Shown here piece after piece: positions 1 through 57,787 of a DNA stretch of 64,000 bases. Location of the stretch: assembly GCF_024223415.1 (NCBI RefSeq), contig NZ_CP100500.1; one strand, written 5' to 3'. This stretch comes from Escherichia coli. Lineage in GTDB: Bacteria > Pseudomonadota > Gammaproteobacteria > Enterobacterales > Enterobacteriaceae. The position numbers were made by a program, and so were the translations under genes. The number at the start of each line of letters is the position of its first letter. The stretch's first letter is position 1. The notes beneath the pieces were generated by a model. The model ran no database searches. It was not told the origin of the DNA and saw nothing but the letters and a program-made list of their open reading frames with translations.

Positions 1-981
1 GCTCAGGTGCTGTATCAGGAACTGGATATTGGTGCAGTCGCGATTACCGATCGAGAGAAATTGCTGGCCTTTACCGGAATTGGTGACGACCACCATTTAC
101 CCGGCAAACCGATTTCTTCAACTTATACTTTAAAAGCGATTGAAACCGGTGAAGTGGTCTACGCTGATGGCAACGAAGTACCTTACCGTTGCTCTTTGCA
201 TCCGCAATGCAAACTGGGGTCGACGCTGGTAATTCCGTTGCGTGGTGAAAATCAGCGGGTGATGGGCACCATCAAATTGTATGAAGCCAAAAACCGTTTA
301 TTCAGTTCAATCAACCGCACGTTGGGTGAGGGGATTGCGCAATTGCTTTCGGCGCAGATCCTTGCCGGGCAATATGAGCGGCAAAAAGCGATGCTCACCC
401 AGTCAGAGATCAAACTGCTTCACGCCCAGGTGAATCCCCATTTTTTGTTTAATGCGCTTAACACCATTAAAGCGGTGATCCGCCGCGACAGCGAACAGGC
501 CAGCCAGCTGGTGCAGTATCTTTCCACTTTTTTCCGCAAAAACTTAAAGCGGCCTTCGGAGTTTGTTACTCTCGCCGACGAAATTGAACATGTGAATGCT
601 TATCTGCAAATTGAAAAGGCGCGCTTCCAGTCGCGGTTGCAGGTCAACATTGCTATTCCGCAAGAATTATCCCAGCAGCAATTGCCCGCGTTTACCCTGC
701 AACCGATAGTGGAAAACGCCATTAAACATGGGACATCACAACTGCTGGATACAGGGCGAGTGGCAATCAGCGCCCGACGTGAGGGGCAACATTTGATGCT
801 GGAGATCGAAGACAATGCCGGTTTGTATCAACCGGTAACCAATGCCAGTGGGCTGGGGATGAATCTGGTGGATAAGCGTTTACGTGAACGGTTTGGCGAT
901 GACTATGGAATAAGCGTCGCCTGTGAGCCTGATAGTTACACCCGAATAACGTTACGACTACCATGGAGGGACGAGGCATGA
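1..981 (+). CDS. btsS: Sensor histidine kinase BtsS (YehU), C-terminal part; 5' end lies outside window
   Basis: ORF in frame from window start; translated sequence recognised as LytS-family histidine kinase C-terminus (HATPase motifs); ATGA overlap with downstream LytTR regulator. Confidence 0.88.
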
Positions 982-1697
982 TTAAAGTCTTAATTGTCGA
1001 TGATGAACCGTTAGCACGGGATAACCTGCGTGTATTTTTGCAGGAGCAGAGCGATATTGAAATCGTTGGAGAGTGTTCAAACGCCGTGGAAGGGATCGGC
1101 GCGGTGCATAAACTGCGCCCGGATGTGCTGTTTCTCGATATCCAGATGCCGCGCATCAGTGGTCTGGAAATGGTGGGGATGCTTGACCCGGAACATCGCC
1201 CGTATATTGTTTTTCTCACTGCGTTTGACGAATACGCAATTAAAGCCTTTGAAGAACATGCCTTTGATTATCTGCTGAAGCCAATTGATGAAGCGCGACT
1301 GGAGAAAACGCTGGCGCGATTGCGTCAGGAGCGCAGCAAGCAGGATGTTTCGCTGTTACCGGAAAATCAACAGGCGCTGAAATTTATCCCTTGTACGGGG
1401 CATAGTCGGATTTATTTGCTGCAAATGAAAGATGTGGCATTTGTCAGCAGTCGGATGAGCGGTGTCTACGTTACCAGCCACGAAGGGAAAGAGGGCTTTA
1501 CCGAATTGACATTACGTACCCTGGAAAGTCGTACACCACTACTGCGCTGCCATCGTCAGTATCTGGTTAACCTCGCGCATTTACAGGAGATTCGTCTGGA
1601 AGATAACGGCCAGGCCGAGTTGATTTTGCGTAATGGCTTAACCGTGCCGGTCAGCCGCCGTTATCTGAAAAGCTTAAAAGAGGCGATTGGCCTGTAA
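978..1697 (+). CDS. btsR: LytTR-family response regulator BtsR (YehT)
   Basis: Translation begins [14 protein letters not shown] (receiver domain) with C-terminal LytTR domain; start overlaps btsS stop. Confidence 0.9.
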
Positions 1698-1743
1698 AAG
1701 ACTGCTAAAATGGCTTTTTGCCTCATCAACACCTGAAGGCCTC

Positions 1744-2214
1744 ATGCTAAGTAACGATATTCTGCGCAGCGTGCGCTACATTTTGAAAGCCAATAATAAT
1801 GACCTGGTGCGTATTCTGGCGCTGGGTAATGTCGAAGCCACCGCGGAACAGATCGCCGTCTGGCTACGTAAAGAAGACGAAGAGGGTTTTCAGCGTTGTC
1901 CGGACATTGTTTTGTCGTCATTCCTCAATGGCCTGATTTATGAAAAACGCGGCAAGGATGAGTCTGCTCCGGCACTGGAGCCGGAACGTCGCATTAATAA
2001 CAACATCGTGCTGAAAAAATTACGCATCGCGTTTTCGCTGAAAACCGATGACATTCTGGCTATCCTCACCGAACAGCAGTTCCGCGTTTCGATGCCGGAA
2101 ATTACAGCGATGATGCGCGCACCGGATCATAAAAACTTCCGCGAATGCGGCGATCAATTTTTACGTTATTTTCTGCGTGGACTGGCAGCGCGCCAGCATG
2201 TGAAAAAAGGCTAA
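1744..2214 (+). CDS. yehS: DUF1456-family protein YehS
   Basis: ORF translation MLSNDILRSVRYILK... matches remembered YehS; internal ATG chosen over the longer ORF start. Confidence 0.8.
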   Translation: MLSNDILRSVRYILKANNNDLVRILALGNVEATAEQIAVWLRKEDEEGFQRCPDIVLSSFLNGLIYEKRGKDESAPALEPERRINNNIVLKKLRIAFSLKTDDILAILTEQQFRVSMPEITAMMRAPDHKNFRECGDQFLRYFLRGLAARQHVKKG

Positions 2215-2255
2215 AAAATTGGCGGTCATGTTTAGAGCATGACCGCCAACCGATT
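2213..2255. terminator. Bidirectional intrinsic terminator between convergent yehS and yehR
   Basis: Stem ggcggtcat/atgaccgcc (2221-2247) flanked by A-run upstream and T-rich downstream. Confidence 0.55.
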
Positions 2256-2715
2256 ATTTCACTTCTTTAAAACCAGCGGCTTTCATCACCAGTTCCATTT
2301 GCGCCATAGTGATACCTTTTTTGGCATCTTCAGCAGAAACGTTGATTCCTGAAATACCCTGCAGGGCTTTAAAATCCACTTTTTCCATATCGATAGTCAC
2401 GTTTTCCTGCGCGTAGGTATCGGTATAGGTTAATTTTTCTTCAACACCCGCGATGTTTTTGTATTTGGCGCTTAACGGCTCAAGTGTCTTGGCAGCATCT
2501 TCTTTGGTGGTTGCACCAATGGAGGCAAATTGAATTTTGGTTTCAGAAGATTGCTTAAGCACCTTGTCACCTTTGTAGACATAGGTAATGGCAATTTCAG
2601 TGCCGTTCAGATTGGCGCTGAATTTCTTCGATTCTTCTTTGTCACCGCAGCCAGCAAGAGAGAAAACCAGAACAGATGCAACAACGAGGGAAAACAGCTT
2701 ATTGAAAGCCTTCAT
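2254..2715 (-). CDS. yehR: Lipoprotein YehR
   Basis: Signal peptide with lipobox (LAGC) at N-terminus, MKAFNKLFSLVVASVLVFSLAGC. Confidence 0.8.
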   Translation of the reverse strand: MKAFNKLFSLVVASVLVFSLAGCGDKEESKKFSANLNGTEIAITYVYKGDKVLKQSSETKIQFASIGATTKEDAAKTLEPLSAKYKNIAGVEEKLTYTDTYAQENVTIDMEKVDFKALQGISGINVSAEDAKKGITMAQMELVMKAAGFKEVK

Positions 2716-2839
2716 GTAAAACTCCATTTTATTTAATCAAGGAACTGGTGACTCTCACCAGGGGCTATATAGGATATGCCTAATACCGTGGCGTGAGCAG
2801 TCCGGAACTGGAGTAGAACTCTTAGTAAAAAGCACTATT

Positions 2840-4840
2840 TCATCCTTGTTGCTGAAGCATGGGGAATAATTGTTCGCAAAGCAAAACACCGTTATTCATT
2901 GCTTCTACCCGTGCCTCGCTTTCTGTATTACGAAATTGTCCCAACACATGTGCCAGCCGATAAAAACCCACCGCGGTGAGGTCATTCGCCAGCAACTCTG
3001 CCTGACCAATAGCACTCTGTTCCTGATAGCGCCAGCCGTTATGGAGCAGTTGAATAAGTAACGCCTGGCAGCGTATCAGCAACTGATGAGCAGTAGACGG
3101 CACAGGCAAAACGCTGGCAGAAGGTAGCGGTGCCACAGGCGTAGTTTCTGCGTCCAGCGCCCAGGCACGGGTTTTTGTCATCATCACCCGTGGTTCCAGT
3201 GTCAATTGCCCTTCAACAAAACTGACAAAGCCAGAAACCAGACACACGGGGTCGTCTGTTTGTTGCAAAAGCGCCGCCATGCGTTCAACGGCATAAGGTG
3301 CGCTGGCTGAGGCTGGTAATGATAACGTCAGCACATTATCTTCCCCTTCGCCGCTAATGACCTGCGCATCCAGCGTCTGGCGGCTGCTGTCCCAACCGAG
3401 CGAAATACACTCAGCGACCGGCAGAATAAATAAGTTATCGACCTGATTAAGAGGCCGTATGCAGGCGGGGGGACGCTGGCGTAAATATTCCCGCAAAGCC
3501 ACAATGCCCGGCTGGCGTAACGGCGCGCTCAACATTTGCCAGGCATCAGGCGACAGCGGCACAACGCTGCTTAAGCGGTTGCGGGTAGCTAACAGCAGCT
3601 CGCCATCGGCACTGCGTTTTGCTGCTTGTGAAACAATTTGCCCGCCCGCCAGTGCGCCAGCCTGAAAACTAAACAGCCGACGCGTAGCTGCCGGTGAGTT
3701 TTCCTGTTCACTTCGCGGCCAACTGCGCGAAAGGTGCAAAATACTGCCGGTGTCGGGATCGGTAAACCAGATGCGTAAACCATAATGCTCAATATCCTGC
3801 CAGCAACGCATACCTAAAGACACCAGCCGCAGATGATCAAGCTTTGCTTCTCCGGCAATGCCAGAGCCAACGACCGTGCGCCACGGCACAGGAGGAACTT
3901 CACCAATACTGTCGCGCCGGGCCATCTCTTGTGCGCAATTTAATCGACTGTTTAATGCCGCAAGCTGATGTAAGCATTCTCCGGCATTATAGTGGCTGGC
4001 GCGGGCGTGGAAGGCATCAACGCTGGCGCGCAGTTGCCGTAGCGATTCACTCACCCAGCGCCAGTTGCAGGTCTCTGCCGCCTGCAATGCGCGGTTGAAT
4101 GCTGCCTCGTAATGGATGAGCGGCTGGCTGATGCCGCCAAGCCATAATGTCTGGCTTAATTGCTGAACATATTGACGACACGCGTTGCCTTCTTCGCTGG
4201 CAAACGGATCGTCAGATGATGTGACGTGTTCGCTGCGCATCTGCCAGATTAAATGGTTAAATTCTGCTTGCTGCGCTTTGGCCTCGACGAAGGCCTGTAC
4301 CGCCAGTACGACATGTTCGCAAAGTGTGCCTTCAATACAATCACAACGGGCGAAACGAATACTGCTGCGGGAATAAAAACGCACATCGCTCATCGGTAAG
4401 CGGGCAGAGGGAATTTCACCCGGCGCACAGAACAACTCAATGGTGATGCCTTTAGCGACCAGCGCCTGTGCGCGTTTGCGGGTAGCATCGGGAAGGGTAG
4501 CCAGTTCTTCCAGCCAGATTGCCGGATCCCACTCTTCTTCTTTTTCCGTAGACTGAGTGGTGGCACAAAGTCGTTGATAACTTAACACCAGCATCACGCG
4601 ATGACGGCACATACCGTTGGCCCCGCAACTGCACTGAGCCTCTTTCAGTGCCTGGCCGTTCGCCAGCTGGGTACGGACACCGTCACTGAAGGTGGCGATT
4701 AAAGCGTCGTTCTCATGGCTGATCTCCGGGACGTTGCCATTTTCCAGTTCCTTAAGACTGCGCTTAACAAAACCGGCATTGCTTAACGCCGTCAGGGCCT
4801 GCGGTGTCAGTTCTAATAATTCCGGACGTAGTGAATTCAT
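2840..4840 (-). CDS. yehQ: SWIM zinc-finger domain protein YehQ
   Basis: Long ORF; CxC...CxH SWIM-like motif (CSCGANGMCRHRVM); start placed at ATG forming ATGA overlap with yehP stop. Confidence 0.75.
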   Translation of the reverse strand: MNSLRPELLELTPQALTALSNAGFVKRSLKELENGNVPEISHENDALIATFSDGVRTQLANGQALKEAQCSCGANGMCRHRVMLVLSYQRLCATTQSTEKEEEWDPAIWLEELATLPDATRKRAQALVAKGITIELFCAPGEIPSARLPMSDVRFYSRSSIRFARCDCIEGTLCEHVVLAVQAFVEAKAQQAEFNHLIWQMRSEHVTSSDDPFASEEGNACRQYVQQLSQTLWLGGISQPLIHYEAAFNRALQAAETCNWRWVSESLRQLRASVDAFHARASHYNAGECLHQLAALNSRLNCAQEMARRDSIGEVPPVPWRTVVGSGIAGEAKLDHLRLVSLGMRCWQDIEHYGLRIWFTDPDTGSILHLSRSWPRSEQENSPAATRRLFSFQAGALAGGQIVSQAAKRSADGELLLATRNRLSSVVPLSPDAWQMLSAPLRQPGIVALREYLRQRPPACIRPLNQVDNLFILPVAECISLGWDSSRQTLDAQVISGEGEDNVLTLSLPASASAPYAVERMAALLQQTDDPVCLVSGFVSFVEGQLTLEPRVMMTKTRAWALDAETTPVAPLPSASVLPVPSTAHQLLIRCQALLIQLLHNGWRYQEQSAIGQAELLANDLTAVGFYRLAHVLGQFRNTESEARVEAMNNGVLLCEQLFPMLQQQG

Positions 4841-5973
4841 GACTGAAGATTCTCCGCAAGCCATGATGCCAGCTCGCCCGGCGTCATGGCGGCTATTTGT
4901 GCGCCGACATTAACCAGCGCCTGGGCCGTATCGCGGTCATAGCAAGGTGTTGCGGTGCTATCGAGCGCTGCCAGTCCCAGCACTTTGATGCCGCTCTGGA
5001 CACACTTTTTCACCTGATGCGTCAGTAATGATGATGAACCCCCTTCGTAAAAATCGCTCACGAGGATAATGACGCTTTTCGCTGGTTGTTCAATAAGTTG
5101 CCGACCATACTCCACGGCACTGGCGATATTGGTCCCGCCGCCCAACTGTACTTTCATTAATAACTCTACCGGATCGGCAACGTCTGCCGTGAGATCAACG
5201 ACGCTTGTGTCAAACGCCACCAGATGGGTACGAATGCCGGGTAACTGCCACAAACAGGCCGCCATCACCGCAGAGTGGATCACCGAATCGACCATCGATC
5301 CGCTTTGATCAACCAGTAAGACCAGTTGCCATTGTTCGCTTTGGCGTTTAATGCGGCTGTTAAAGCGGGGGGATTCGATATACAACTTGCCGTGTTGCGG
5401 GTGCCAGTGTTGCAGGTTGGCGCGCAGAGTACTTTTGAAATCAAAGTTTCGCGCCAGTGGAATAAATGAACGGCGACGGCGATCGCGGACACCAGAAAAA
5501 GCCTGACGAACTTCCTTTGCCAGTCGAGCCATAATTTCTTCAACAACCTGGCACACTATCCGGCGGGCGGCAGCCAGTACTTCGGGGTTCATCAGATGTT
5601 TGGTGTGCAAAACAGCGCGTAGCAGGCTTTCAGAAGGCTGCATACGTTCCAGCACGTCGAGATTCGTCACCACATCTTCAATGCCGTAGCGCAGCACGGC
5701 ATCGCTTTCCAGCCGCTCAATCACCTGCTGCGGAAACAGCGTGTGAATACTGTTGATCCACTCAGGGGTGGTGAGATTTGAGCCACCTAATCCACCGGAA
5801 CGTTCACCACGCTGGAGCCGTTCAGGATCGCGCCCATACAGCCACTCCAGCGCGTGGTCTATCTGCCGGGCGTTGTCATCCAGCCCACAAAGCGTCGTTT
5901 CTGCCGCTTCGCCAAGAATTAATCGCCAGCGTTGTAGCTCACGGGTGGTCAGAAGATCGTTCAGTTCAGACAT
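4837..5973 (-). CDS. yehP: von Willebrand factor A domain protein YehP
   Basis: VWA-like MIDAS motif (DQSGSM); start MSELNDLL chosen inside longer ORF; 8-bp overlap with yehM. Confidence 0.8.
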   Translation of the reverse strand: MSELNDLLTTRELQRWRLILGEAAETTLCGLDDNARQIDHALEWLYGRDPERLQRGERSGGLGGSNLTTPEWINSIHTLFPQQVIERLESDAVLRYGIEDVVTNLDVLERMQPSESLLRAVLHTKHLMNPEVLAAARRIVCQVVEEIMARLAKEVRQAFSGVRDRRRRSFIPLARNFDFKSTLRANLQHWHPQHGKLYIESPRFNSRIKRQSEQWQLVLLVDQSGSMVDSVIHSAVMAACLWQLPGIRTHLVAFDTSVVDLTADVADPVELLMKVQLGGGTNIASAVEYGRQLIEQPAKSVIILVSDFYEGGSSSLLTHQVKKCVQSGIKVLGLAALDSTATPCYDRDTAQALVNVGAQIAAMTPGELASWLAENLQS

Positions 5974-8245
5974 GGAAAACTCCCCAGTTTTGCAGCGATG
6001 CCAGTGCCTGCTGTTCGAGTTGTTGATGATGTGCAATGGCCTGTGGTGGACAATGCAACGGCATTTGCAGCGCCGAAACGGGAAGTTGCGCCAGTTGATA
6101 ATGCTCAAGCACCTGATGCGCCAGCGTCCCGCGTTCTCGTGGTGGTAGCCAGGCCATCGCCGCGCGTAAATCGGGCAGGGCGTTAATAAAATCGGCTTCA
6201 CTCAGTTGATTTAAATGACTGCTGAAACCAGCGATAAATGCCGGCTGACAGGCCAGTTGATGGCGGGCCAGCGCCAGCAAACCGTGCAGCGCCTCACCAG
6301 ATTGTGCCGGGGATAACTGCGCCAGCATCGTCAGCGCCGCTTCGGCACTGGCGTTGGGATGTTCCAGACGCATTAGTGCGCCAAGAGCCGCGCCGCGATC
6401 CAGCGCCGGGGCATGAATTGCCTGACTGCGTCGCTCCAGTAAGGCTACCGCCGCAGAAAGAGAAACGCCGGGTAAATTAACGCCGCTATGTAGATCGCGC
6501 AGAATATGGCAAAGCGCTTGCCAGCTATGCAGGTGAGCGTGAAACTCCTTTTCATCCGGTCTGCCGTTAGATTCACACAGCCACAGCGTGCGATCGATAG
6601 TCGCGCATAACGTCGTTTGTAATATCTGCGCGCCTTGCATACCGCTAATTTCATCCAGCCGCCATAAGGCATAAAGCACTTCCAGCGCCTGGCCCATTTC
6701 GGCAAATTGATTTTCCTGGGCGATTAATAGTGTGAGTTGCTCCAGTAATTGTTGACTGAAGGACGCCAGACCCGCTAACGCCGCCTGGCTAAGACATGTG
6801 GTGATACTGCCGATTCCGCCCGCGTCCAGCATATCGGCTTCTAATTTATTGCGTGCGGCTTCCTGGAGTGTGGCACCAAAACAGGCGGCCTCAATCAATG
6901 CCGCATGCTGGCTAAGCGGGCGGGTTAATTTCCAGCGTTCTTCACCGTTGCCTGCAAGTGTCAGTGTACTTCCCTGCTGGCGTACAATCCCAGGGATCTC
7001 CAGTATTGCCAGCCGATGTAACACCTGACTTTGCGCCAGCCCATCGGGGGTAAAGCGATTTAAGGTAAGCTCCGCCGGAAGGGAGATTGCGGTACGTTCC
7101 AGTTCGCAGGTGACATCTTTTGGCAGAGGCGGTTGTGGCGTAGAAGGGGCAAGTTTACCGAATCCGTCACCCGCTAATGTGTCTATCAACGTTAGCAGAA
7201 TCGGATCGGTATCGGGATGAATAACGCCGCGATAGCTCCACGGCAACGGCGCGTTCAGGGCTTCTTTAATCAGCGAGCCTGCTATGGCATCCAGCCAGTC
7301 AGTGCGTAACGGTAGTGTATGACCGCGCAACTGTGCCAGCGCCATCGCATGCAGATGAGCGGCAGCCATATCCGCGGTAGAAGCGGGCAATTTGTGCTGG
7401 CGCAAACGGGTAAGGATAGTTTTTAGCAGTTGTTCACCGGCCTTCTGCAAGCCCCACTGCCAGCACCAGTTTTGCCATACCGGGGCAGGCATTCCTGAAA
7501 GGTATCCTGCCAGCACATCAAGGCGCTTTTCACTGTAGGGTGTGAGATAACAACCTGTAACGGCATCTGCCAGCGAGGGCAATTCTGGCTTGTTAATTTT
7601 CTGAGGGCATTCGCGCCACATCTTTGCCAGTGCCGGAGCGTGCCAGCCACCGCAGACAACTAACACGTCGCCATTATTTTGCTGCATCGCCCATCCAATC
7701 CAGCGGGCCATAAAGGCTTCGCGCTGACGATTGAGCGCATCGCCGGAGGCGTCGCCCCGCAGTTGGGCAAAATAGTGCGCCAGCGCAGAGGGTAATGCAG
7801 TTTGCTGGCTTTCATCTTCGAACAAGTGATCCCACAGGGTATCGCTGTTATCCATGCGGGTGGCACGCAGCAGTAAGGCCTGGCTTTCATCTTGCGTATC
7901 AGGCGAATCGTCCTCTTCTTCACTCTGCGCCCAGCAAGGCAAATCGATGAAGTAAGTTTGTGCCTGAATGCGACGTGCGGCTTGTAGCGCCTGCCACTCC
8001 GGCGAAAATTCAGCAAATGGCGTCCAGGCACCACGCCCGGGGGCTGCACCGTCCTGATACTGGCAATAACTGTAAATAGCTACCGGAAGCTGGTGGGCTA
8101 AAAACAGTTCGTCTACCCGGTCATTAAAATCAGCCGGGCCTTCAATCAACACGTATCGTGGCCGCTGGCTTTCGATTAACGATTTCACCAGCCGGGCGCA
8201 GGCCGGACTATGATGCCGGATGCCGACAATTAACGGCTCGCTCAT
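5966..8245 (-). CDS. yehM: Large uncharacterised protein YehM
   Basis: 760-aa ORF beginning MSEPLIVGIRHHSPACARL; conserved position between MoxR ATPase and VWA genes. Confidence 0.8.
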   Translation of the reverse strand: MSEPLIVGIRHHSPACARLVKSLIESQRPRYVLIEGPADFNDRVDELFLAHQLPVAIYSYCQYQDGAAPGRGAWTPFAEFSPEWQALQAARRIQAQTYFIDLPCWAQSEEEDDSPDTQDESQALLLRATRMDNSDTLWDHLFEDESQQTALPSALAHYFAQLRGDASGDALNRQREAFMARWIGWAMQQNNGDVLVVCGGWHAPALAKMWRECPQKINKPELPSLADAVTGCYLTPYSEKRLDVLAGYLSGMPAPVWQNWCWQWGLQKAGEQLLKTILTRLRQHKLPASTADMAAAHLHAMALAQLRGHTLPLRTDWLDAIAGSLIKEALNAPLPWSYRGVIHPDTDPILLTLIDTLAGDGFGKLAPSTPQPPLPKDVTCELERTAISLPAELTLNRFTPDGLAQSQVLHRLAILEIPGIVRQQGSTLTLAGNGEERWKLTRPLSQHAALIEAACFGATLQEAARNKLEADMLDAGGIGSITTCLSQAALAGLASFSQQLLEQLTLLIAQENQFAEMGQALEVLYALWRLDEISGMQGAQILQTTLCATIDRTLWLCESNGRPDEKEFHAHLHSWQALCHILRDLHSGVNLPGVSLSAAVALLERRSQAIHAPALDRGAALGALMRLEHPNASAEAALTMLAQLSPAQSGEALHGLLALARHQLACQPAFIAGFSSHLNQLSEADFINALPDLRAAMAWLPPRERGTLAHQVLEHYQLAQLPVSALQMPLHCPPQAIAHHQQLEQQALASLQNWGVFHV

Positions 8246-8255
8246 GCATCTTTCC

Positions 8256-9344
8256 TCACGGCAGGCGGTGGCGGGCTTGATAATAAGCCTGCCAGTGAGC
8301 TTCTTTATGTGTGGCGACACGCTGTTCGAAGTAACGGCGCAGACGCGCGCGATCTTCTTCGTTATCTTTGACGATGGTTCCGGCAATACATTCCACCAGG
8401 TCGGCAGGCTCCCCCGCGCGATTCGCTAAAAACCAGGCGCGGACGCCCACAGCATGGGCCACGTTCACGGCTTCAGCGGTGGACATAATCGCTGTCAGTG
8501 TATCCATTGACGTTTTCTTTTCGCCGTTGGCACGCAGATCGCGGAAGGTGCGGACCAGTAATTCCAGTACCGCGTCAGGCACTTTATGCGGAATACCGCT
8601 ATGGGCCAGCAAACGCGCCGAAGCACTGGCGACCAGTTCCAACTCCTGGGCGAAATCCATAATCGGAAAAACCGTTTCAAAATCGAAGCGACGCTTTAGC
8701 GCAGCACTCATTTCATTGACGCCGCGATCGCGGGTATTGGCAGTGGCAATAATATTAAAGCCTTCTCGCGCATAGAGCTGACTGGCTTCACCAGTGAGTT
8801 CCGGCACCGTCATCACCCTGTCAGAAAGCATACCTAACAGACAGTCCTGCACTTCCAGCGGTGTACGCGTTATCTCTTCGAAACGGACGATTTTGCCGTC
8901 GCGCATTCCCTGATAAAGCGGGGCAGGGACCAGCGCTTCCGTTGACGGACCATGATTGATAAGCAAGGCGTAGTTCCAGCCATACTTGATTTGATCTTCG
9001 GTGGTAGATGCCCCGCCCTGGATGGTTAACCCGGCATCGCCGCTAATAGCGGTTGCCAGTAATTCAGAAAGAAGAGATTTTGCGGTACCCGGTTCCCCCA
9101 CCAACATCAAACCGCGGCCGGTAGCAAGAGTGACTAACATACGTTCGACAGCGGAGGGGCTAATCACCACTTTACGGCTGATATTTTGCGCTTCGTCGCC
9201 AAGGATAAAAGCACGGGCCGCAGGCAAACTTAACTGCCAACCGGGCGGGCAAGGTGCGTTATCATTTTGTTTTAATTTTGCCAGTTCATCGGCGTATAAC
9301 ACAGCAGCAGGCGGACGCTGCAGATGATTATTCTGCGGTGACAT
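8256..9344 (-). CDS. yehL: MoxR-family AAA+ ATPase YehL
   Basis: Walker A GEPGTAKS and AAA+ core seen in translation; start MSPQNNHLQRPP. Confidence 0.85.
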   Translation of the reverse strand: MSPQNNHLQRPPAAVLYADELAKLKQNDNAPCPPGWQLSLPAARAFILGDEAQNISRKVVISPSAVERMLVTLATGRGLMLVGEPGTAKSLLSELLATAISGDAGLTIQGGASTTEDQIKYGWNYALLINHGPSTEALVPAPLYQGMRDGKIVRFEEITRTPLEVQDCLLGMLSDRVMTVPELTGEASQLYAREGFNIIATANTRDRGVNEMSAALKRRFDFETVFPIMDFAQELELVASASARLLAHSGIPHKVPDAVLELLVRTFRDLRANGEKKTSMDTLTAIMSTAEAVNVAHAVGVRAWFLANRAGEPADLVECIAGTIVKDNEEDRARLRRYFEQRVATHKEAHWQAYYQARHRLP

Positions 9345-23028: not shown

Positions 23029-25509
23029 ATGTTGAGAATGACCCCACTTGCATCAGCAATCGTAGCGTTATTGCTCGGCATTGAAGCTTATGCAGCTGAA
23101 GAAACCTTTGATACCCATTTTATGATAGGTGGAATGAAAGACCAGCAGGTTGCAAATATTCGTCTTGATGATAATCAACCCTTGCCGGGGCAGTATGACA
23201 TCGATATTTATGTCAATAAGCAATGGCGCGGGAAATATGAGATCATTGTTAAAGACAACCCGCAAGAAACATGTTTATCAAGAGAAGTTATCAAGCGGTT
23301 AGGCATTAATAGCGATAACTTCGCCAGCGGTAAGCAATGTTTAACATTTGAGCAACTTGTTCAGGGGGGGAGCTATAGCTGGGATATCGGGGTTTTTCGT
23401 CTCGATTTCAGTGTCCCGCAGGCTTGGGTGGAAGAACTGGAAAGTGGCTATGTTCCACCGGAAAACTGGGAGCGGGGTATTAATGCGTTTTATACCTCTT
23501 ATTATGTGAGTCAGTATTACAGCGACTATAAAGCGTCGGGTAATAACAAGAGTACATATGTACGTTTTAACAGCGGGTTAAATTTACTGGGGTGGCAACT
23601 GCATTCTGATGCCAGTTTCAGTAAAACAAATAACAATCCAGGGGTGTGGAAAAGCAATACCCTGTATCTGGAACGTGGATTTGCCCAACTTCTCGGCACG
23701 CTTCGCGTGGGTGATATGTACACATCAAGCGATATTTTTGATTCTGTTCGCTTCAGCGGTGTGCGGTTGTTTCGTGATATGCAGATGTTGCCTAACTCGA
23801 AACAAAATTTTACGCCACGGGTGCAGGGGATTGCTCAGAGTAACGCGCTGGTAACTATTGAACAGAATGGTTTTGTGGTTTATCAGAAAGAGGTTCCTCC
23901 TGGCCCGTTTGCGATTACAGATTTGCAGTTGGCCGGTGGTGGAGCGGATCTTGATGTCAGCGTGAAAGAGGCGGACGGTTCGGTAACCACCTATCTGGTG
24001 CCTTATGCAGCGGTGCCAAATATGCTGCAACCCGGCGTGTCGAAATATGATTTTGCGGCGGGTCGTAGCCATATTGAAGGGGCGAGCAAACAAAGTGATT
24101 TTGTCCAGGCGGGTTATCAGTATGGTTTTAATAACTTATTGACGCTGTATGGTGGCTCGATGGTTGCTAATAATTACTATGCCTTTACTTTGGGGACTGG
24201 CTGGAATACACGCATTGGTGCCATTTCCGTCGATGCCACGAAGTCGCATAGTAAACAAGACAACGGCGATGTGTTTGACGGGCAAAGTTATCAAATTGCC
24301 TACAACAAATTTGTGAGCCAAACGTCGACGCGTTTTGGTCTGGCGGCCTGGCGTTATTCGTCGCGTGATTACCGGACATTTAACGATCACGTTTGGGCAA
24401 ACAATAAAGATAATTATCGCCGTGATGAAAACGATGTCTATGACATTGCCGATTATTACCAGAATGATTTTGGTCGCAAAAATAGCTTTTCCGCCAATAT
24501 GAGCCAGTCATTGCCAGAAGGTTGGGGGTCTGTGTCATTAAGTACGTTATGGCGAGATTACTGGGGGCGTAGCGGCAGTAGTAAGGATTATCAGTTGAGT
24601 TATTCCAACAACCTGCGACGGATAAGCTATACCCTCGCGGCAAGCCAGGCTTATGACGAGAATCATCATGAAGAGAAACGTTTTAATATTTTTATATCGA
24701 TTCCCTTTGATTGGGGTGATGACGTTTCGACGCCTCGTCGGCAAATATATATGTCTAACTCAACGACGTTTGATGATCAGGGGTTTGCCTCAAATAATAC
24801 GGGATTATCAGGAACAGTAGGGAGTCGGGATCAGTTCAATTATGGTGTCAACCTGAGTCATCAACATCAGGGAAATGAAACGACAGCTGGGGCGAATTTG
24901 ACCTGGAACGCGCCGGTTGCGACAGTGAATGGCAGTTATAGTCAGTCGAGTACTTATCGACAGGCTGGAGCCAGTGTTTCAGGGGGCATTGTCGCCTGGT
25001 CGGGTGGCGTTAATCTGGCGAACCGTCTTTCCGAAACGTTTGCTGTGATGAATGCGCCAGGAATTAAAGATGCTTATGTCAATGGGCAAAAATATCGCAC
25101 AACAAACCGTAATGGAGTGGTGATATACGACGGAATGACACCTTATCGGGAAAATCACCTGATGCTGGATGTGTCGCAAAGCGATAGCGAAGCAGAATTA
25201 CGTGGCAACCGGAAAATTGCCGCCCCTTATCGCGGCGCGGTTGTACTGGTTAATTTTGATACCGATCAGCGCAAGCCCTGGTTTATTAAAGCGTTAAGAG
25301 CGGATGGTCAACCATTAATGTTTGGTTATGAAGTCAATGATATCCATGGTCATAATATTGGCGTTGTCGGCCAGGGAAGCCAGTTATTTATTCGCACCAA
25401 TGAAGTACCGCCATCGGTTAATGTGGCAATTGATAAGCAACAAGGACTTTCATGCACAATCACCTTCGGTAAAGAGATTGATGAAAGTAGAAATTATATT
25501 TGCCAGTAA
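23029..25509 (+). CDS. yehB: Outer-membrane fimbrial usher YehB
   Basis: 826-aa usher-like ORF with signal peptide MLRMTPLASAIVALLLG. Confidence 0.85.
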   Translation: MLRMTPLASAIVALLLGIEAYAAEETFDTHFMIGGMKDQQVANIRLDDNQPLPGQYDIDIYVNKQWRGKYEIIVKDNPQETCLSREVIKRLGINSDNFASGKQCLTFEQLVQGGSYSWDIGVFRLDFSVPQAWVEELESGYVPPENWERGINAFYTSYYVSQYYSDYKASGNNKSTYVRFNSGLNLLGWQLHSDASFSKTNNNPGVWKSNTLYLERGFAQLLGTLRVGDMYTSSDIFDSVRFSGVRLFRDMQMLPNSKQNFTPRVQGIAQSNALVTIEQNGFVVYQKEVPPGPFAITDLQLAGGGADLDVSVKEADGSVTTYLVPYAAVPNMLQPGVSKYDFAAGRSHIEGASKQSDFVQAGYQYGFNNLLTLYGGSMVANNYYAFTLGTGWNTRIGAISVDATKSHSKQDNGDVFDGQSYQIAYNKFVSQTSTRFGLAAWRYSSRDYRTFNDHVWANNKDNYRRDENDVYDIADYYQNDFGRKNSFSANMSQSLPEGWGSVSLSTLWRDYWGRSGSSKDYQLSYSNNLRRISYTLAASQAYDENHHEEKRFNIFISIPFDWGDDVSTPRRQIYMSNSTTFDDQGFASNNTGLSGTVGSRDQFNYGVNLSHQHQGNETTAGANLTWNAPVATVNGSYSQSSTYRQAGASVSGGIVAWSGGVNLANRLSETFAVMNAPGIKDAYVNGQKYRTTNRNGVVIYDGMTPYRENHLMLDVSQSDSEAELRGNRKIAAPYRGAVVLVNFDTDQRKPWFIKALRADGQPLMFGYEVNDIHGHNIGVVGQGSQLFIRTNEVPPSVNVAIDKQQGLSCTITFGKEIDESRNYICQ

Positions 25510-53513: not shown

Positions 53514-53618
53514 AACCGCGGGCCAGCGTGATGCTGGCCCGGTATTGTGCAAAACAGATCATTCACCAATGGTCCCCCTTCGTTTACACTAGCCACAATT
53601 GAATATGGGTAAATGACG

Positions 53619-54392
53619 ATGAATTCATTCGAGCGAAGGAATAAGATCATCCAATTAGTGAATGAACAGGGAACCGTGCTTGTTCAGGATCTGGCGGGAG
53701 TATTTGCTGCCTCGGAAGCGACAATCCGTGCCGATTTGCGCTTTCTCGAACAAAAAGGCGTGGTTACGCGCTTTCATGGCGGTGCGGCGAAAATAATGTC
53801 TGGTAATAGTGAAACCGAGACCCAGGAAGTCGGGTTTAAAGAGCGATTTCAGCTCGCCAGCGCGCCAAAAAACAGAATAGCGCAGGCGGCAGTCAAAATG
53901 ATCCACGAAGGGATGACCGTTATTCTCGACAGCGGAAGTACGACAATGCTTATCGCCGAAGGATTAATGACCGCCAAAAATATCACGGTGATTACCAACA
54001 GTCTCCCGGCAGCGTTTGCCCTTTCCGAAAATAAAGACATTACTCTGGTCGTCTGTGGTGGCACGGTCCGCCATAAAACGCGCTCGATGCATGGTTCCAT
54101 TGCCGAGCGTTCATTACAGGATATTAATGCCGATTTAATGTTTGTCGGTGCTGATGGTATTGATGCGGTTAATGGTATTACGACCTTTAATGAAGGTTAT
54201 TCTATTAGCGGTGCGATGGTCACAGCCGCTAATAAAGTGATTGCCGTTCTCGATTCATCGAAATTTAACCGTCGCGGTTTTAATCAGGTACTACCAATCG
54301 AAAAAATTGACATTATTATTACCGATGATGCTGTGTCAGAGGTGGATAAACTGGCATTGCAGAAGACGCGGGTAAAATTAATTACGGTGTAG
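53619..54392 (+). CDS. gatR: DeoR-family repressor GatR, apparently intact
   Basis: Uninterrupted DeoR-family ORF (HTH plus sugar-binding domain). Confidence 0.85.
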   Translation: MNSFERRNKIIQLVNEQGTVLVQDLAGVFAASEATIRADLRFLEQKGVVTRFHGGAAKIMSGNSETETQEVGFKERFQLASAPKNRIAQAAVKMIHEGMTVILDSGSTTMLIAEGLMTAKNITVITNSLPAAFALSENKDITLVVCGGTVRHKTRSMHGSIAERSLQDINADLMFVGADGIDAVNGITTFNEGYSISGAMVTAANKVIAVLDSSKFNRRGFNQVLPIEKIDIIITDDAVSEVDKLALQKTRVKLITV

Positions 54393-54473: not shown

Positions 54474-55373
54474 TTAACGCAACAGTGGACAATCTGGTGG
54501 CAGACGGCAACGCAACGCTGCCGGAAGTATTTCAATATGAAAATTTTGCCCACTCAACGGTTCGCCATCAAGATTAAAGGTGATGTCGTGTGGTGCCTGA
54601 ATATCAAACCACGACGAAGCGCCTTCGATAATATTCGGGTTATCTTCGTCAGATTTTAAGGTTGATACGAGAGCCGGAAGTATTTCATCGCCGGTAAAAA
54701 TGCGCAGTTGCAGCAAGCCATCGTTAATTAACGCGTTCGGACACAATTGCTGACCGCCACCGGCCTGACGCCCGTTACCAATACCAATGACCAGGGCGTC
54801 ACCTTGCCAGTGAAAGTTTTCACCGCGGATTTCACAACGGTCCGGTTGCAGAGTATCCATGCGCATTAAGCCATGAATGATGTAAGAGACGCCACCCAGC
54901 GCGGCTTTTAATTTTTCCGGCGTTTCTGTGGTAATACGCGTCCCAAATCCGCCTGTCGCCATATTAATAAAACAGGTTTGTTTGTTGACCTGCGCCATAT
55001 CTATCGCAATGGCGTTACCGGCAATTGCCAGTTTCAGCGCCTTATCCAGTGCCTCAGGAATCCCTACACTGGTGGCAAAATCATTGGCGGTTCCTAATGG
55101 CAAAATTCCCAGCGCGGGTATGTCATCCCCCTCACACTGAATCAACGCCGTAGAAACTTCATTAATGGTGCCATCGCCACCACCGGCAATCACCGTTGCG
55201 ACGCCCAACTTCCGGGCCTCCTCTACATATCGTGCGGCATCGCCTTTCTCCCAGGTGACCCGCACATGGATCGTCATTCCTTCCTCACGCAACAGCATAA
55301 TTGCTTCGCGCAAGGGTAAATTGTCAGTACTTTTGCCATTAAGAATCAGTAAGCTGGCGGGAAATTCTGCCAT
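54474..55373 (-). CDS. yegS: Lipid kinase YegS (DAG kinase-like)
   Basis: 299-aa protein beginning [15 protein letters not shown] with GGDGT motif; internal start chosen. Confidence 0.88.
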
Positions 55374-55777
55374 GATCGTATGTGCCTTTATGATTGGTCT
55401 GTAGATAGTGTAGAGCAGAAAAGAAAAGGTGGAGTCAGAACAGGATGAAAGTCGGAGGATAAAAGTCAGTTCAAGTATGGAGGATTCAGTGGTTACCACC
55501 AGGAGCTTGCAATGGGGACAGCGAATACTAACGGCAGCCACCGATAAATTTCAAAAAAGAGAATATACCTAATATTCAACTAAACGGTGGCATCTTCAAT
55601 ATAATATATTAAAGCCCTCATGGAGTTACCCGGAAGGGCCTCCATGTCCGTAATTCCTACTTATGTAGGAAATGTTGTACAGAACATTTATTATAATCCT
55701 ATTCAATTATAATAATCATGCCATTATTATATTTAAACACTAGAGAGTGTCGTTGGTATTTAATGGGGGAAGGTGAG

Positions 55778-56095
55778 ATGAAAAAGATAGCTGCTATATC
55801 ATTAATTAGTATTTTTATTATGTCTGGTTGTGCTGTGCATAATGATGAGACAAGTATCGGTAAATTTGGTCTTGCATATAAAAGTAATATTCAGCGTAAA
55901 CTCGATAACCAATACTACACCGAAGCCGAAGCTTCTTTAGCCAGGGGTAGAATATCTGGTGCAGAAAATATAGTAAAAAATGATGCAACTCATTTCTGTG
56001 TTACTCAGGGCAAAAAAATGCAAATAGTTGAGCTGAAGACAGAAGGTGTAGGATTACATGGTGTCGCTCGTCTGACATTCAAATGTGGAGAGTGA
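55778..56095 (+). CDS. yegR: Small lipoprotein YegR
   Basis: 105-aa ORF with signal peptide and lipobox (IMSGC); AT-rich context. Confidence 0.7.
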   Translation: MKKIAAISLISIFIMSGCAVHNDETSIGKFGLAYKSNIQRKLDNQYYTEAEASLARGRISGAENIVKNDATHFCVTQGKKMQIVELKTEGVGLHGVARLTFKCGE

Positions 56096-56253
56096 GAATA
56101 TTTTTTGGTAAGCGTCAAATATGCGCTTTCTGGCTGTGCGTAGCCGGAACCTGTGGGAGCACGATGCCGATAAGTGAAAGGCATCGTGCTATGAAGGAGG
56201 ATTCTATCGATGTGGTCAATGGAAGACGGTTACCAGAGATAGGGCTTATGCAT

Positions 56254-56340
56254 AAAAAAATAAGCCCGTGTAAGGGAGATTACACAGGCTAAGGAGGTGG
56301 TTCCTGGTACAGCTAGCATTTTATGGGTTATGTTTTTCAG
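56254..56340 (-). ncRNA. cyaR: CyaR (RyeE) Hfq-dependent small RNA
   Basis: Reverse complement reads gctgaaaaacataacccataaaatgctagctgtaccaggaaccacctccttagcctgtgtaatctcccttacacgggcttattttttt, matching remembered CyaR with terminator hairpin. Confidence 0.8.
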
Positions 56341-56425
56341 CGAAACGGATGATAACCTTAATAAATGCAGCTGTATGTGATCGGTTTCTAAGAATTTTCC
56401 ATCCGGGAAAAATAATCGAAATTAA

Positions 56426-57787
56426 TCACTTACCGTGTGGGTTACGCGTGGTTTCCCCGGAGAAATTACGCATCAGCAGAGCGTAATTGAGCTCAAGATC
56501 CTGCGGGACCGGGAGCCACACAGTATAACCATCGCCTGGTGCGACCGGCATCGCTTCACCTTTGGCGTTTTCCATGTGCTCAAGGGTAAAGTTAATGTTG
56601 CCTTGCGGCGTCATCAGCTCAAGGCTGTCGCCAACGGAGAATTTATTTTTCACCGCTACCGCCGCGAGGTCCCCCTTGCGCTCACCGGTAAACTCACCAA
56701 CAAACTGCTGGCGGTCAGAAACTGAATAACCGTATTCGTAGTTCTGATAATCGTCGTGAGTATGACGACGCAGGAAACCTTCGGTATAGCCACGATGCGC
56801 CAGACCTTCCAGAGTTTCCAGCAGGCTGGTATCGAACGGTTTGCCCGCAGCGGCGTCATCGATAGCTTTACGGTAAACCTGTGCGGTGCGTGCGCAATAG
56901 TAGAAAGATTTAGTACGGCCTTCGATTTTCAGCGAATGCACGCCCATTTTGGTCAGGCGTTCTACATGGGCGATGGCGCGCAGATCTTTCGAGTTCATGA
57001 TGTAAGTGCCGTGCTCATCTTCAAACGCGGTCATATACTCGCCCGGACGCTGGGCTTCTTCGATCATAAACACTTTGTCGGTTGGCGCGCCGATACCCAG
57101 CGTCGGCTCAACATTTTGCACCGGAATCGGCTCGTACTTGTGTACGATGTTGCCAACGTCATCTTCTTTCCCTTCCTGGACGTTGTACTCCCAGCGGCAG
57201 GCGTTGGTGCAGGTACCCTGGTTCGGATCGCGCTTGTTGATATAGCCAGAGAGCAGGCAGCGACCGGAGTAGGCCATGCACAGTGCGCCGTGAACGAAGA
57301 TCTCGATCTCCATATCCGGCACCTGATTGCGGATCTCTTCAATCTCTTCCAGCGACAGCTCGCGAGAGAGGATCACGCGGGTCAGGCCCATTTGCTGCCA
57401 GAATTTCACCGTCGCCCAGTTTACGGCGTTAGCCTGCACCGAGAGGTGGATCGGCATTTCAGGGAAGTGCTCACGCACCAGCATAATCAGCCCTGGATCG
57501 GACATAATCAGCGCATCCGGCCCCATTTCCACCACCGGTTTCAGGTCACGGATAAAGGTTTTCAGCTTGGCGTTGTGCGGTGCAATGTTGACCACGACAT
57601 AAAACTTTTTCCCCAGCGCGTGGGCTTCATTGATGCCGAGCTGAAGATTTTCGTGGTTGAATTCGTTGTTGCGCACACGCAGGGAGTAACGCGGCTGGCC
57701 CGCATAAACAGCATCTGCGCCATAAGCGAAAGCGTAACGCATATTTTTCAGCGTTCCCGCCGGGGAAAGGAGTTCCGGTTTAAACAT
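56426..57787 (-). CDS. yegQ: Peptidase U32-family protein YegQ
   Basis: 453-aa ORF with U32-family sequence. Confidence 0.88.
   Translation of the reverse strand: MFKPELLSPAGTLKNMRYAFAYGADAVYAGQPRYSLRVRNNEFNHENLQLGINEAHALGKKFYVVVNIAPHNAKLKTFIRDLKPVVEMGPDALIMSDPGLIMLVREHFPEMPIHLSVQANAVNWATVKFWQQMGLTRVILSRELSLEEIEEIRNQVPDMEIEIFVHGALCMAYSGRCLLSGYINKRDPNQGTCTNACRWEYNVQEGKEDDVGNIVHKYEPIPVQNVEPTLGIGAPTDKVFMIEEAQRPGEYMTAFEDEHGTYIMNSKDLRAIAHVERLTKMGVHSLKIEGRTKSFYYCARTAQVYRKAIDDAAAGKPFDTSLLETLEGLAHRGYTEGFLRRHTHDDYQNYEYGYSVSDRQQFVGEFTGERKGDLAAVAVKNKFSVGDSLELMTPQGNINFTLEHMENAKGEAMPVAPGDGYTVWLPVPQDLELNYALLMRNFSGETTRNPHGK

Follow-up and report, generated by a model that had tools for sequence, protein, structure and literature searches.

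Several phages use the 3′ end of a tRNA, tmRNA or small RNA (sRNA) gene (for instance ssrA, rybB or a tRNA gene) as their integration target, and the attP sequence of the phage rebuilds the end of that gene. The closest described counterpart of the locus reported here is locI, a chromosomal attachment site of phage P2. PMC3931495, which cites the 1992 study of Barreiro and Haggard-Ljungquist, gives locI as the preferred site of P2 in E. coli C, states that locI of K-12 holds a P2 remnant, reports that P2 integrates there in vivo in an Int- and IHF-dependent manner, and quotes the sequence of the core; PMC3091744 also cites the P2 attB locI from the 1992 study. A further account lists the states of a ‘cyaR RNA’ insertion site: Wphi2 (P2) in strain W, ogr-D′ in K-12, P2*B in B and none in Crooks (Archer et al., 2011; PMC3032704, Table 2). 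In the annotated genome of the K-12 strain MG1655 the order is trhP, cyaR, the cryptic prophage PR-X (629 bp; ogrK and the pseudogene yegZ), yegR, yegS and gatR interrupted by IS3E. CyaR is an Hfq-dependent sRNA whose expression depends on CRP. As at the other sites of this kind, the locI core overlaps the terminator of a small RNA gene, which remains intact upon integration because a copy of that sequence comes with the phage; the difference is that the target is an Hfq-dependent sRNA instead of a tRNA.

We analysed a stretch of 64,000 nucleotides of an E. coli chromosome (NZ_CP100500.1), hereinafter the window, and concentrated on the interval between yegR and yegQ (Table 1). An earlier, sequence-only reading had put this interval at about 330 bp and had placed in it a minus-strand CyaR with its terminator: by the ORF list and the sequence the interval is exactly 330 bp, and the CyaR call is borne out by Rfam, a terminator scan and the predicted fold. 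The match to the Rfam family RF00112 (CyaR_RyeE; 56258..56343, minus strand) spans the full model (positions 1-85 of 85) with 100.7 bits and E = 1.3e-19, the gathering score being 47, and the cyaR sequence in the window is identical to that of K-12. In the minimum free energy fold a small CCUCC hairpin with the C-rich loop ACCACCUCC is followed by a Rho-independent terminator with its U-tail, which corresponds to a T-run at 56255..56262 after the terminator stem. The gene lies directly downstream of yegQ/trhP in the window, in K-12 and in 15/15 outgroup loci with a yegQ match. Upstream of cyaR there is a CRP-like pair of half-sites, the single match in the window against 0.1 expected by chance, and given the known CRP dependence of CyaR this is a putative CRP site of the cyaR promoter. 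On the other side of the interval the yegR-like ORF, whose 105-residue product has the K-12 length, stops at 56095; its translated lipoprotein signal reads MKKIAAISLISIFIMSGC, and YegR homologues bear the precomputed Pfam assignment PF27694 (YegR). Beyond yegS, the DeoR-type gatR is an uninterrupted ORF of 259 aa in the window (53613..54392), whereas the K-12 gene is split by IS3E, which is absent here.

Table 1. Coordinates of the features discussed in the text, numbered from the first nucleotide of the window.
Feature	Position	Strand	Description	Basis
yegS	54474..55373	-	299 aa	translation; tblastn against outgroup loci; K-12 annotation
yegR island	55455..56253		799 bp, 39% GC	BLAST break-points against six outgroup loci; same two boundaries in E. 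albertii
Putative decayed attL-like island end	55455..55516	-	P′-proximal sequence and degenerate core, directly before ancestral flank CGACTTTCATCC	alignment
yegR	55778..56095	+	predicted lipoprotein of 105 aa, lipobox IMSGC	translation; so annotated in matching genomes
yegR-yegQ intergenic interval	56096..56425		330 bp	ORF list and sequence
Perfect 11-bp inverted repeat AGCACGATGCC ... GGCATCGTGCT	56158..56190	+	downstream of yegR	read from sequence
Relic of P2-type Int arm-binding site (P arm) TCGATGTGGTCAATGGAAGACGGTTACCAGAGATA	56207..56242	+	12 bp from core	alignment with P2
cyaR (ryeE) sRNA gene	56255..56341	-	87 nt	Rfam; colinear with annotated K-12 cyaR (b4438)
P2 attB ‘locI’ core AAAAAATAAGCCCGTGTAAGGGAGATT	56255..56281	+	single unoccupied copy	identity to P2 attP core
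CyaR intrinsic terminator	56263..56290	-	11-bp stem, 6-nt loop	terminator scan, MFE fold, Rfam structure line
CRP-like site TGTGATCGGTTTCTAA	56376..56391	+	centre about 42 nt upstream of cyaR start	motif match
yegQ/trhP	56426..57787	-	453 aa, upstream neighbour of cyaR	ORF list; annotation of matching genomes

The last 27 nt of cyaR are identical at 27/27 positions to the annotated attP core of P2 (AF063097, 24356..24382). The same 27 nt recur unchanged in several other Peduovirus genomes, and PMC3931495 quotes this very sequence as the locI core (citing Barreiro and Haggard-Ljungquist, 1992). Within cyaR the core extends over the T-tail of the terminator together with its 3′ arm and loop. The P2 integrase would thus recombine the attP core with the identical nucleotides at the cyaR 3′ end; because the phage carries the same core sequence, integration would rebuild the cyaR terminator at attR, and it would leave a second copy of the core at attL beside yegR. 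The junctions of loci that carry a prophage show the corresponding arrangement: int lies beside yegR and ogr beside cyaR, with the order yegR-attL-int-C-cox in REL606 and in the prophage record 720R8, and the order D-ogr-attR-cyaR at the opposite end in TUM12357, where the phage-borne core restores the cyaR terminator at attR. In comparison with locI of other strains, the window has an identical core in the same position between yegQ/cyaR and yegR, and it shares the empty configuration of Crooks; there is no essential difference. The P2 attachment site at the cyaR 3′ end, which had gone unrecognised in the sequence-only reading, is the mechanism behind the polymorphism of this interval: since the P2 core is the end of cyaR, strains differ in whether the site holds a P2-like prophage, its decay products or neither. 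This is a presence/absence polymorphism at a documented P2 site, and the window has its common allele, which is already known in the literature. The cyaR 3′ end is nonetheless worth flagging as a P2 attB in genome annotation, as prophage calls, remnants of the PR-X type and the cdtABC cargo of E. albertii (see below) all hinge on it.

The sequence-only reading had ogrK and yegZ of K-12 at this site, and the MG1655 annotation has precisely this order. Their absence from the window is likewise exact: BLAST aligns the window and K-12 as two colinear blocks with an overlap of 18 nt in the window and 611 extra bp in K-12, so that the window is K-12 minus PR-X and lacks 611 bp as well as one of two 18-bp repeats. 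The repeat, TACACGGGCTTATTTTTT, flanks PR-X on both sides in direct orientation and is the last 18 nt of cyaR (56255..56272 in the window), that is, the first 18 nt of the core. PR-X hence occupies the same locus and uses the same att core, its attL copy being trimmed to 18 nt and joined to a gene D fragment. By annotation it lacks int and cox; K-12 keeps just ogrK and the gene D fragment of a P2-like prophage. The end point of this truncation recurs: in K-12 D′ (5813..5830), TUM12357 I′ (about 3656..3673) and BS-01 D′ (about 660..677; all positions in locus extracts) the deletion on the yegR side ends at the same nucleotide of the attL core, ...AAAAAATAAGCCCGTGTA, the short BS-01 remnant being noisy in sequence and read at its attL junction only. 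A shared deletion end in three different P2-like remnants suggests an Int-mediated or otherwise site-directed truncation rather than a random deletion.

To count the states of the site, 5,426 complete E. coli genomes were searched with queries that span the junctions. The contiguous, empty junction is present in 4,207 genomes (77.5%), the intact int-side attL junction of a P2-like prophage in 812 (15.0%), and the K-12-type D′/core junction in 357 (6.6%), the last figure agreeing with what remains when the 4,207 genomes of the junction query are taken from the 4,564 that a 1.3-kb query covers. Other remnants, rearrangements or genomes with no match amount by subtraction to about 50 (about 1%). 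Strains with the empty junction share 96-100% identity with the window and come from a number of well-known lineages: these include Nissle 1917, O157:H7, O55:H7, O104:H4 and ST131, with phylogroups B2, E and B1 represented. Nissle 1917 and many other strains additionally have an AT-rich segment of 169 bp right behind the yegR stop codon (at window position 56100; 2000..2168 of the Nissle locus extract). We considered this length variant as a smaller phage relic and rejected it: it is an AT-rich indel far from the core and unrelated to the att site.

These counts bear on the choice, left undecided in the sequence-only reading, between an ancestral empty configuration and a deletion. If the interval were the product of a deletion, the lineage would once have harboured a remnant of the K-12 type, with ogrK and yegZ, or else a larger P2-like prophage, and would since have lost it through recombination between the core repeats, through Int and Cox acting in trans, or through acquisition of an empty allele by homologous recombination. 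Such a history is compatible with the sequence itself, as recombination between the 18-bp repeats of PR-X would restore that of the window exactly, and the frequency of P2-like prophages at the site (with the int-side junction in about 15% of genomes) makes a past occupancy followed by clean excision plausible. Nevertheless, the PR-X remnant has neither of the genes that would serve its excision, int and cox; the empty state extends over 77.5% of genomes in several lineages, whereas the K-12-type junction is confined to 357; and the flanks of the window differ by 0.6-1.7% from those of K-12, indicating that it is no K-12 derivative. As nothing requires a loss, we regard a deletion as improbable. 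The evidence favours the window being in the pre-insertion state relative to PR-X, because it has one intact 27-nt core with no scar and because the remnant lacks int and cox; an earlier intact prophage that had been excised would look identical, since scarless excision by Int and Cox leaves no trace. The empty half of the earlier alternative is accordingly the one to be retained, given the single clean core and its prevalence, while the word ‘ancestral’ holds only relative to PR-X: in the outgroups the yegR segment is itself absent.

Species-representative genomes were scanned with an exact pattern, which yielded cyaR loci of other Escherichia species as well as of other genera. In six of these cyaR is next to yegS, namely those of ‘E. 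coli’ E69 (so labelled, although it represents a species of its own), E. whittamii, Escherichia sp. E1V33, Silvania, Enterobacter sp. EA-1 and Kosakonia. Here the yegS start codon lies within about 90 bp of the cyaR terminator, yegS being the gene directly after cyaR in lineages without the intervening DNA. The break-points of these alignments define a segment in the window, the yegR island, which starts exactly where the cyaR T-run ends, includes 159 bp of the 330-bp yegR-yegQ interval, and has a GC content of 39% as against 50% for the window. No yegR is found at this site in the six outgroup loci (three Escherichia lineages and three other genera), nor in E. albertii; this sampling, without E. 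fergusonii, dates the gain only roughly. Conversely, the cyaR-yegS junction of the E69 type is contiguous in at most 1 of the 5,426 E. coli genomes, and the island is therefore effectively fixed in E. coli. The one complete genome labelled E. coli in which the cyaR and yegS flanks are just about 500 bp apart is FDAARGOS_1077 (NZ_CP068155.1, 4039884..4040601); it has no yegR annotated beneath the match and may hold a shorter or different island.

One end of the island resembles the P arm of a P2-type attachment site, and the other may be a decayed attL. On the cyaR side a 36-nt stretch, with an exact match of 15 nt, aligns to the P2 sequence TCGATGTGGTCAATGTGTGGACGTGACCAGAAATA, annotated as ‘Int, P arm’ (24293..24320), and it sits 15 bp closer to the core than its P2 counterpart does. 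Its local alignment score of 38 compares with 14.5 +/- 2.1 for dinucleotide shuffles, 0/5000 of which reach this value, and with 13-16 for the flanks downstream of cyaR in the six outgroup loci. The perfect inverted repeat downstream of yegR ends 16 nt (56191..56206) before this P-arm relic, in the position that the ogr terminator has in P2; it is without a T-run and may serve as a terminator of yegR. At the far end, towards yegS, a position-constrained, colinear global alignment to the attL of E. albertii gives a score of 10, against -9.3 +/- 4.1 for shuffles (1/10,000 of which reach it) and at most -2 for other pieces of the island; the unconstrained local alignment of the same end is weaker (p about 0.02-0.03). 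No recognisable second core repeat is left at this end of the island.

A better-preserved parallel is found in E. albertii NBRC 107761: the 3.4-kb P2-like remnant that separates cyaR from yegS there (4945..8340 of the locus extract) retains both att cores. It carries cdtA, cdtB and cdtC, which encode the cytolethal distending toxin (Pfam CDtoxinA and Exo_endo_phos), and no yegR. The two elements have exactly the same chromosomal boundaries, are small and cargo-bearing, and have the P-arm side beside cyaR. They differ in preservation and content: the E. albertii remnant has two core copies, a well-preserved P′ side and cdtABC, whereas the E. coli island has yegR, its attL would be decayed, and it is fixed in E. 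coli.

We hence read the yegR island as, most probably, what is left of an ancient integration of a P2-like phage, since fixed in E. coli. Following such a first integration the attR side would survive as the intact core plus the P-arm relic and the attL side would have decayed; the core would have stayed intact because, as the cyaR terminator, it is under selection. The contrary view, that the island is ordinary host intergenic DNA never touched by a phage and that its resemblance to the P2 arm is coincidental, finds some footing in its content and distribution. Searches of the island with the P2 Int and Ogr proteins (tblastn) detected no fragments of either gene, structural genes have left no detectable fragment either, a short-word blastn for P2 gene fragments returned just the core and the 15-nt P-arm match, and blastn of the island against a phage collection gave no matches apart from records that include host flank; moreover, nearly every E. 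coli genome conserves the interval. It does not explain, however, why the whole 799-bp segment is missing in outgroups in which cyaR abuts yegS, why it is low in GC, or why a clear P2 remnant sits between the same boundaries in E. albertii. Coincidence also accounts poorly for the P-arm likeness, which is at the expected place by the core and is matched by none of the shuffles while the outgroup flanks remain at background, and for the attL-like end, matched by 1 in 10,000 shuffles in the constrained alignment. The view of untouched host DNA is in our estimation very improbable and already largely refuted. We consider the preferred reading highly probable: the interval is an unoccupied P2 attB locI coinciding with the cyaR terminator, and the adjoining yegR DNA would be an older, decayed P2-like remnant.

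The order of these events would be as outlined above, with yegR having arrived with the ancient element or into it. Homologues of yegR elsewhere (82-46% identity) lie at unrelated loci, with nucleotide homology confined to the ORF, and yegR is therefore an accessory gene. None of the homologues found is in a phage context, the divergent ones lying in an island rich in IS elements or in ordinary chromosomal surroundings; given these non-phage contexts, yegR may have entered the remnant or the site independently of the phage. Two apparent links of yegR to phages were set aside. The record of Escherichia phage vB_EcoM-720R8 (ON470606.1) contains in 1..2820 the host genes gatR, yegS and yegR beyond attL, and this flank was rejected as phage DNA since the prophage extract overruns into the host. 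The strong match of YegR to phrog_21109 was discounted as phage evidence for the same reason; prophage records that overrun into the host probably explain why YegR has a PHROG family of its own.

In the literature searched, to which the primary paper of 1992 does not belong, no account came up of the nested ancient remnant, of yegR belonging to such a P2 remnant, or of a P-arm relic beside the core. The nested remnant is a further instance of a familiar process, and the island furnishes a modest but concrete case of nested, repeated use of a single att site in an sRNA terminator over evolution. An island bounded by probable relics of the P2 arms also offers a testable idea on why P2 prefers locI: the ‘empty’ site would be an attR-like hybrid, left by a fossil prophage of which yegR remains, and the retained P arm could help to recruit Int, thereby aiding the preference of P2 for locI over secondary sites or biasing the direction of recombination. 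This is speculative, and we think it unlikely to be the case.

Other DNA is also found directly after cyaR. In E. coli SCPM-O-B-8794 (about 3480..3700 of the locus extract) a different variant of the P2-like arm follows the cyaR core and about 150 nt further on rejoins sequence like that of the window at about 56140..56165, CACAGGTTC(C/T)GGCTACGCAC, which hints that the proximal part of the island has undergone mosaic replacement. In Mangrovibacter (three loci), Kluyvera and Leclercia, 0.7-3 kb of different, unrelated DNA comes right after the cyaR terminator; the 3′ end of cyaR looks to be a hot spot for insertions far outside E. coli as well. A contig of a metagenome-assembled genome labelled Collinsella sp. 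(JAIJJM010000051.1) opens with cyaR followed by an ogr of the K-12/P2 type, with 100% identity to the P2 Ogr, and almost certainly represents E. coli DNA that contaminates an actinobacterial assembly.
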